Position numbers and translations under genes: made by a program | The notes under the pieces: model-generated | The model's input: only the letters and a program-made list of their open reading frames with translations | What the model was told of the DNA's origin: nothing | Database searches by the model: none | Origin: a virus | Taxonomy: Duplodnaviria; Heunggongvirae; Uroviricota; Caudoviricetes | IMG/VR virus record: IMGVR_UViG_2534681649_000007 | DNA: 6,192 nucleotides | Reading direction: 5' to 3' (one strand) | Shown: positions 3,020 to 3,396 of the stretch, one piece after another | Layout of the letters: the number at the start of each line of letters is the position of its first letter | Numbering within the stretch: position 1 is the stretch's first letter

Positions 3020-3352
3020 TTATCGAGAACTGTTCAGGGAGTCTGACATCAAGAGCGCGGTAGCCTTTTTTAATATTTCATTCTCCATTTCAATGCGTTG
3101 TAGCTTTTTCCTCAGCTTACGTATTTCGATTTGTTCTGGTGTTATCGGAGAGGCTTTTGGTGTTTTGCCCTGACGCTCATCACGCAGTTGTTTGACCCAT
3201 CTTGTCATTGTGGAAAGGCCAACATCCATAGCTTTGGCGGCATCTGCCACCGTGTATTTCTGGTCAACAACCAGTTGAGCGGATTCGCGTTTAAACTCTG
3301 CGCTAAAATTTCTTTTTTCATTGGAGCACCTGTGTTGTTCTGAGGTGAGCAT
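3020..3352 (-). CDS. IS911 OrfA (HTH protein) with atypical N-terminal extension
   Basis: Product ...[98 protein letters not shown]. In-frame ATG at 3350-3352 lies inside IRL behind the SD GAGGTGA. The ATG directly before the A-run (ATGAAAAAAGAAAT, 6 A) is out of frame. Confidence 0.8.
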
Positions 3353-3396
3353 ATCACCTCTGTTCAGGTGGCCAAATTCAGTGTGCCACTTCAGGT

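Follow-up and report, generated by a model that had tools for sequence, protein, structure and literature searches.

A one-base shortfall in the orfA A-run of an IS1-interrupted IS911 copy from Shigella boydii: private lesion or miscall

The IS911 copy and its prophage surroundings

The stretch of DNA analysed here, referred to as the window, is the entire 6192-bp contig AKNB01000167.1 of assembly GCA_000268185.1, Shigella boydii 4444-74. Its first bases lie in IS600 and its last bases in IS1, as is common where draft assemblies break off in repeated sequence. Within the window, a copy of IS911 is split into two parts by an IS1 (Table 1). As reference, we used an intact E. coli IS911, annotated by PGAP with a programmed frameshift. 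The left part of the copy is 99.73% identical to nt 1-1106 of this reference, the A-run at the start of orfA being the sole gap, and the right part is 99.35% identical to nt 1098-1250 of the reference query. Without IS1, the element measures 1248 bp, compared to 1249 bp for the reference copy, and near-identity along the full length identifies it as IS911. The inverted repeats, which in IS911 are 36 bp long (PMC2909936), are imperfect, 5'-TGAAGTGG...CCACTTCA-3', with the IRL tip at 3393 and the IRR tip at 1369.

The two reading frames stand in phases 0/-1 as in IS911, and the orfB frame is open up to the IS1 at 2289/2290. The orfB remnant carries the annotation EIQ46174.1/EIQ32449.1, 'integrase core domain protein [Shigella boydii 4444-74]'. 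With its orfB interrupted by IS1, the IS911 copy is already dead.

Table 1 Features of the IS911 copy in the window.
Feature	Position	Strand	Remarks
IS911 left part, IRL tip to IS1 insertion point	2290..3393	-	reference nt 1-1106, 99.7% identity
IS911 right part, ending ...TTGACCACTTCA at 1369	1369..1512	-	
IS1, 768 bp, in IS911 orfB	1522..2289	+	
9-bp target duplications CAGCGAGGC flanking IS1	1513-1521 and 2290-2298		
IRL of IS911, 36 bp	3358..3393	-	PMC2909936 and IRL/IRR comparison
Programmed -1 frameshift heptamer A AAA AAG, intact	3065..3071	-	
orfB remnant, 241 codons, entering IS1	2268..2993	-	
A-run, 6 A	3313..3318	-	7 A in reference IS911 and four orthologous copies
Usual orfA ATG, out of frame here	3319..3321	-	opens 38-codon ORF ending 3205
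Upstream ATG, IS nt 42-44	3350..3352	-	in OrfA frame only if the A-run is 6
110-codon ORF, extended OrfA	3020..3352	-	annotated as gene in source record
SD-like GAGGTGAT abutting upstream ATG	3353..3360	-	GAGG core 4 nt from ATG
Hairpin GAGGUGA-UAUGC-UCACCUC	3342..3360	-	upstream AUG in 5-nt loop
AGGTG, SD of usual orfA start	3327..3331	-	5 nt upstream of ATG

The element is located in a Rac-like racR/ydaS/ydaT prophage remnant. It follows a ydaT-family gene at a distance of 73 nt, and on its opposite side lies a prophage late region near a holin gene. A 3-bp target duplication is absent around IS911, which is bordered by ACC on the left (3394-3396 side) and CAT on the right (1366-1368 side). 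The missing duplication, together with the abutment of ydaT on the late region, points to deletion or IS-IS recombination, with one flank rearranged. The replication/nin/Q segment of the prophage is lost, and ydaT is joined via IS911 to the late region. A search of window positions 2900-3450 against Rfam gave no match at the gathering threshold.

The A-run and the start of orfA

Canonical OrfA is a protein of 100 aa (PMC2909936) that begins MKKRNF from the ATG at IS nt 73-75, and PGAP begins the programmed-frameshift CDS of the reference at this usual ATG. The window copy does not encode this protein. An earlier note on this DNA had given MKKRNF as the canonical start, which requires 7 A where this copy has 6, and had named comparison with the reference as a refuting test. 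The note was right in this: the reference leader has 7 A and is otherwise identical to the window across the whole leader. With 6 A, the usual ATG is out of frame, as that note had also described, and its frame reads MKKEILAQ... and stops after 38 codons. The OrfA frame is instead joined to the ATG at 3350-3352, and the predicted 110-aa ORF was found at 3352..3020. On the minus strand, the region reads GAGGTGAT ATG CTC ACC TCA GAA CAA CAC AGG TGC TCC AAT GAA AAA AGA AAT TTT AGC, so that an upstream 12-residue N-terminus stands in place of OrfA's MK. The product has a mass of 12.69 kDa. A UniProt title, 'IS911 uncharacterized 12.7 kDa protein', gives a similar mass, and no weight is placed on it here.

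In 7-A copies, the upstream ATG opens a 16-codon ORF only, and any -1 change in the A-run therefore yields the extended ORF automatically. By rough estimate, an in-frame upstream ATG followed by 10 stop-free codons is expected by chance in about 1 in 10 cases. The 110-codon ORF is a by-product and not a designed alternative start, a judgement based on the orthologous copies of the same insertion, which read 7 A. In 7-A elements, the 16-codon upstream ORF overlaps the orfA start. A 124-aa protein of S. flexneri K-315 represents the 6-A frame open to the very tip of IRL, where a flank ending in A and the terminal TG of IRL make up its ATG.

The upstream ATG had been placed inside IRL, a position that needs correction: at IS nt 42-44, it lies 6 nt inward from where the 36-bp IRL ends, and only the GAGG overlaps the repeat. 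The claim of a strong SD holds for complementarity, as eight bases of GAGGTGAT pair with the 16S 3' end, but not for context, since the sequence is buried in a hairpin and its core stands 4 nt from the ATG. A spacing of 4 nt between the GAGG core and the AUG is the short limit for an SD. GAGGUGA and UCACCUC (3348-3342) form a 7-bp stem of -10.6 kcal/mol (z = -3.6 compared to shuffles), and the probability of the SD being unpaired is 0.14 in modelled read-through, tip-started and junction-promoter-like transcripts. Eight relatives, the most distant at 70% identity, retain the hairpin, and 98% of their cells are paired. A covariation test on these 8 relatives recovered two G-U changes and no compensatory pair; the hairpin is thus conserved, with no statistical support for an RNA role.

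In IS10 and IS50, translation starts are sequestered in read-through transcripts. The conserved hairpin just inside the left end of IS911 resembles this arrangement, as it covers a ribosome-binding sequence in transcripts entering from outside; unlike in IS10 and IS50, the start that it covers is an upstream, normally unused one, and covariation lends it no support. The leader also contains CACCT/AGGTG repeats at IS nt 25-29, 35-39, 48-52 and 64-68. Through these, the leader can pair in different ways, occluding one or the other ribosome-binding sequence (3342-3360 and 3327-3346, minus strand), and the repeat region is better conserved among relatives than the IR tip.

The AGGTG of the usual start is invariant in all 8 relatives, and the frame of the usual ATG is kept by every relative at 70-97% identity, reading MKK(R)NF, or MTKRTRRTF in Vibrio. 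The A-run itself varies among them (AAAAAAAGA, AAAAGAAGA, AAAAAACGA and a 3-nt deletion), and the Vibrio relative has no upstream ATG. Tests of the upstream ATG as a functional start were negative for SD accessibility and spacing, for conservation of the ATG and of the extension in relatives, and for occurrence of the same allele in orthologues or in a real spreading lineage. As modelled, the context of the upstream ATG is poor, and little or nothing of use would be translated from it.

A further consideration is where transcripts begin. TTGGCC (3375-3370), N16 and TATGCT (3353-3348) are promoter-like by sequence, matching at 8 of 12 positions, and are likely to represent the resident promoter pIRL; a promoter scan of 3250-3900 called no site, this one included. 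With TATGCT as the -10 of pIRL, the upstream AUG would lie inside the -10 and thus off the element's own mRNA. For the junction promoter, a review places the -35 in IRR and the -10 in IRL (PMC9330008). By our own count, a transcript from that promoter would include the upstream AUG.

Orthologous copies and other 6-A records

Orthologues were located by look-up of the exact YdaT protein, which returned four loci (L024, CP162080; L027, CP099865; L028, S. boydii CP026731; L029, CP160647). All four have the same structure, the same flank (AGGAAGGTTCGGCACC followed by TGAAGTG) and the same IS1 insertion. The A-run has 7 A in 4 of 4, the outcome of the comparison with other genomic copies that the earlier note had proposed. 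Together with the usual frame kept by the relatives, it supports that note's alternative of a coincidental frameshift or a homopolymer error. L028 matches the window at 99.92% identity over 6.15 kb, and four differences are private to the window when it is set against the three fully aligned orthologues. Two are indels, namely -A at 3319 in the IS911 run and +A at 5933 in an IS600 slip-site run (A8 versus A7), 2.6 kb from the IS911 run; the other two are substitutions at 1363 and 19. No private difference occurs in the five 7-base runs that the window has outside IS sequence. From this distribution, the order of events is IS911 insertion, IS1 insertion and then loss of one A in this record only. 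As the IS1 is common to the orthologues and the 6-A run is private, the change arose, or was called, in a transposase-dead copy.

The IS600 copies in the window show run-length differences of their own. In the right copy, the A8 at 5926-5933 (minus-strand run, within ORF 5027..6163; A7 in three orthologues) fuses orfA and orfB into one 378-codon ORF (RefSeq WP_252716761.1), and an IS1 at 6150 interrupts this copy as well. In the left copy, the slip-site run at window 128-133 is A6 in the window, L028 and L024, and A7 in L027 and L029; A6 gives an OrfA of 95 aa instead of 100 aa. The pattern of the left run mostly follows the local phylogeny and may be real.

The 6-A leader is rare overall. It was the best match at >=99% identity in 22 of 4327 matching E. 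coli records and in 35 of 2177 matching plasmid records, and an exact-pattern scan of species-representative genomes found none. At least 7 separate records of ETEC plasmids contain a truncated IS911 with 6 A, while a neighbouring IS911 fragment on the one such plasmid analysed (L002) has 7 A; real 6-A copies thus probably exist too, in dead elements. The assembly that contains the window has a further IS911 copy (AKNB01000282.1, 59043-63085), and this copy reads A7, which indicates that the 6-A call is not systematic in that assembly. This copy differs from the window copy by three SNPs, lies behind a different flank (antA-like gene) and is joined to IS1 at the identical junction, at a contig end. 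The junction represents a duplicated IS911::IS1 composite, or else the assembly took a path through a repeat.

The 6-A copies of S. sonnei were considered as a working, spreading lineage, a candidate that we rejected because other assemblies have 7 A at these sites. The index lists the exact 110-aa product in 72 blocks, compared to 2602 for the 100-aa product, and it is named in S. sonnei 53G and 3226-85. Full-length 1248-bp 6-A copies are present at many sites, with perfect 3-bp duplications at four, and carry an intact OrfAB' of 399 aa and a nested SNP, 833T. Given the many sites and the cis preference of OrfAB, reported as ~200-fold (PMC5009743), these copies looked at first like a working variant. 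However, S. sonnei annotations include a 7-A protein of this haplotype, and 5 of the 8 places returned for it coincide with S. sonnei sites called 6 A elsewhere, so that these five sites have 7 A in five other assemblies. Orthologous 8.3-kb pairs differ by 3-7 homopolymer or short-indel differences and at most 5 substitutions. Loci from the 6-A assemblies also shift frame at homopolymers in glpQ, yfaE and the gene for a TonB-dependent receptor, all of which are intact in the 7-A assemblies.

The 7-A set of S. sonnei has a deviation of its own, reading A5G, not A6G, at the IS911 slip site (nt ~316) in 8 of 8 places (genomes CP104428, JAEMEC01, CP066810, CP102115 and CP104435), probably a residual long-read error confined to repeats. 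Despite A5G, PGAP still gives a 389-aa transposase in these genomes. A 1249-bp tip-to-tip contig of the S. sonnei haplotype, taken to be a collapsed short-read repeat, combines A7 in the first codons of orfA with A6G at the slip site. Each S. sonnei long-read set thus departs from the canonical element by a single homopolymer deletion. Given the clonality of S. sonnei, assemblies that disagree at all orthologous copies cannot reflect biology, and on these comparisons the apparent spread of 6-A copies is technical.

Origin and meaning of the missing A

We interpret the 6-A run as a functionless private lesion or a miscall in a dead copy, the two being about evenly balanced with the miscall slightly favoured. 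Judged from the letters of the available records, this either/or would stand.

We postulate, with about an even chance of being right, that a homopolymer miscall or assembly artefact accounts for the missing A in this 6.2-kb IS-rich draft contig. The true sequence of the window copy would then be A7, as in its orthologues, and the 110-codon ORF would follow automatically from the one-base shortfall. This proposal is favoured by the A7 of the four orthologous loci with the same flank and IS1, and by the nature of the private differences, two of four being +/-1 in A-runs inside multi-copy IS while the five non-IS 7-base runs are unchanged. The draft-like breaks of the contig in IS600 and IS1 agree with it. 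In S. sonnei, five sites read 6 A or 7 A depending on the assembly, the 6-A assemblies break frame in glpQ, yfaE and the TonB-dependent receptor, and the tip-to-tip 1249-bp contig combines A7 with A6G; the scarcity of the 110-aa product (72 index blocks versus 2602 for the 100-aa product) points the same way. Against a miscall, the AKNB01000282.1 copy of the same assembly reads A7, and real A7-to-A6 events seem to occur in dead copies, as on the ETEC plasmids (at least 7 records). A-run polymorphisms that track phylogeny are present in the same region, at window 134 and 4669, and published E. coli mutation rates allow, as a rough estimate, 0.1-1 real run-length changes on the branch. We infer, at only slightly better than even, that the call is a technical one and that no late deletion really took place.

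A genuine deletion from A7 to A6 by replication slippage, after IS1 had killed the copy and with the extended ORF as a coincidence, is a tentative alternative to which we give somewhat less than an even chance. The order of events fits, as IS1 is present in all orthologues and the 6-A state is private, and the A7 of the other copy in the same assembly, the recurrence of a 6-A dead copy in at least 7 ETEC plasmid records and the phylogenetically consistent A-run changes nearby are all in accordance with a real event. However, both private indels fall in IS runs and none in the five non-IS 7-base runs, a distribution expected about 1 in 21 times under equal rates, and elsewhere the 6-A call has proved to be an artefact.

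Gene conversion, or a collapsed or chimeric consensus, from a true 6-A IS911 copy in the same genome is decidedly improbable. CP026731 does contain both a 6-A call (L006) and the 7-A call of L028, each of the 760G haplotype, and the recurrence of the IS911::IS1 junction at the end of a second contig suggests repeat-path ambiguity. Yet the window retains the copy-specific 524T, common only to the orthologue L028, and the true 6-A donor is hypothetical.

Even more improbable is that the 6-A state works, with OrfA and OrfAB made from the ATG at nt 42-44, extended by 10 N-terminal residues and translated from upstream-initiated transcripts only, be it from the circle-junction promoter or by ydaS-ydaT read-through. 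The frame is open and preceded by an 8-nt anti-SD complement, the 399-aa OrfAB' is intact in full-length 6-A records (RefSeq WP_432422969.1), ydaS and ydaT are oriented as IS911, and OrfAB[1-149] with an N-terminal TrxA tag still binds the IR (PMC2909936). These points are opposed by the burial of the SD in the -10.6 kcal/mol hairpin with its GAGG core 4 nt from the AUG, by the location of the AUG within the probable -10 (TATGCT) of the resident promoter, and by the relatives, which keep the usual ATG frame and of which that of Vibrio lacks the upstream ATG. The orthologues have 7 A, the apparent 6-A spread is technical, and the window copy is without orfB.

We regard as scarcely credible that low levels of an MKKRNF OrfA arise from the usual AUG, through -1 slippage of tRNA-Lys or addition of an A by RNA polymerase. 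A -1 slip from the second AAA of AUG AAA AAA G would re-pair perfectly and give MKKRNF, and A-runs are known slippery sites (PMC5009743), but the run is G AAA AAA G and not a phased A AAA AAG heptamer, no stimulator is found nearby and the window copy has no usable orfB. Counting further against such a rescue, six A's are below the length for appreciable transcriptional slippage. Equally doubtful is that the A7 run in orfA codons 2-4 would be a real mutational switch, an A6 element staying silent until transcribed from outside; were this true, OrfA and OrfAB of A6 elements would be made only from the ATG at nt 42-44, via the circle-junction promoter or host read-through.

Compared to canonical IS911, a member of the IS3 family with a 100-aa OrfA, an OrfAB produced by -1 frameshifting at A AAA AAG and the promoters pIRL and pjunc, the window copy has 99.3-99.7% nucleotide identity and the same ends, leader and heptamer. 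It differs in being one A short in orfA codons 2-4, in its orfB cut by IS1 and in the missing 3-bp duplication. We file it with homopolymer indels in IS copies, whether decay or residual long-read/454 errors, from which it is indistinguishable: it shares with them a +/-1 change in a run of 7, confinement to multi-copy sequence and disagreement among assemblies of the locus. A likeness to phase-variable contingency tracts lies in a mononucleotide run in the first codons whose length sets the frame. With 7 bases, however, the run is short for such a tract. Its length varies among records, and in S. sonnei the variation tracks assemblies and their quality, not strains.

A one-base change in an A-run of a dead IS911 is of an already known, ordinary kind, and its biological interest is small: a dead copy has one more lesion or a miscall. 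For curation, 6-A calls create a 110-aa 'transposase family protein' in public databases and a non-pseudo 399-aa RefSeq 'IS911 family transposase', WP_432422969.1, both of which begin MLTSEQ. The S. sonnei entries of 110 and 399 aa rest, by the comparison of assemblies, on homopolymer miscalls that persist inside repeats. Start-codon or frameshift-site variants should not be inferred from IS elements in long-read or draft assemblies without read support.
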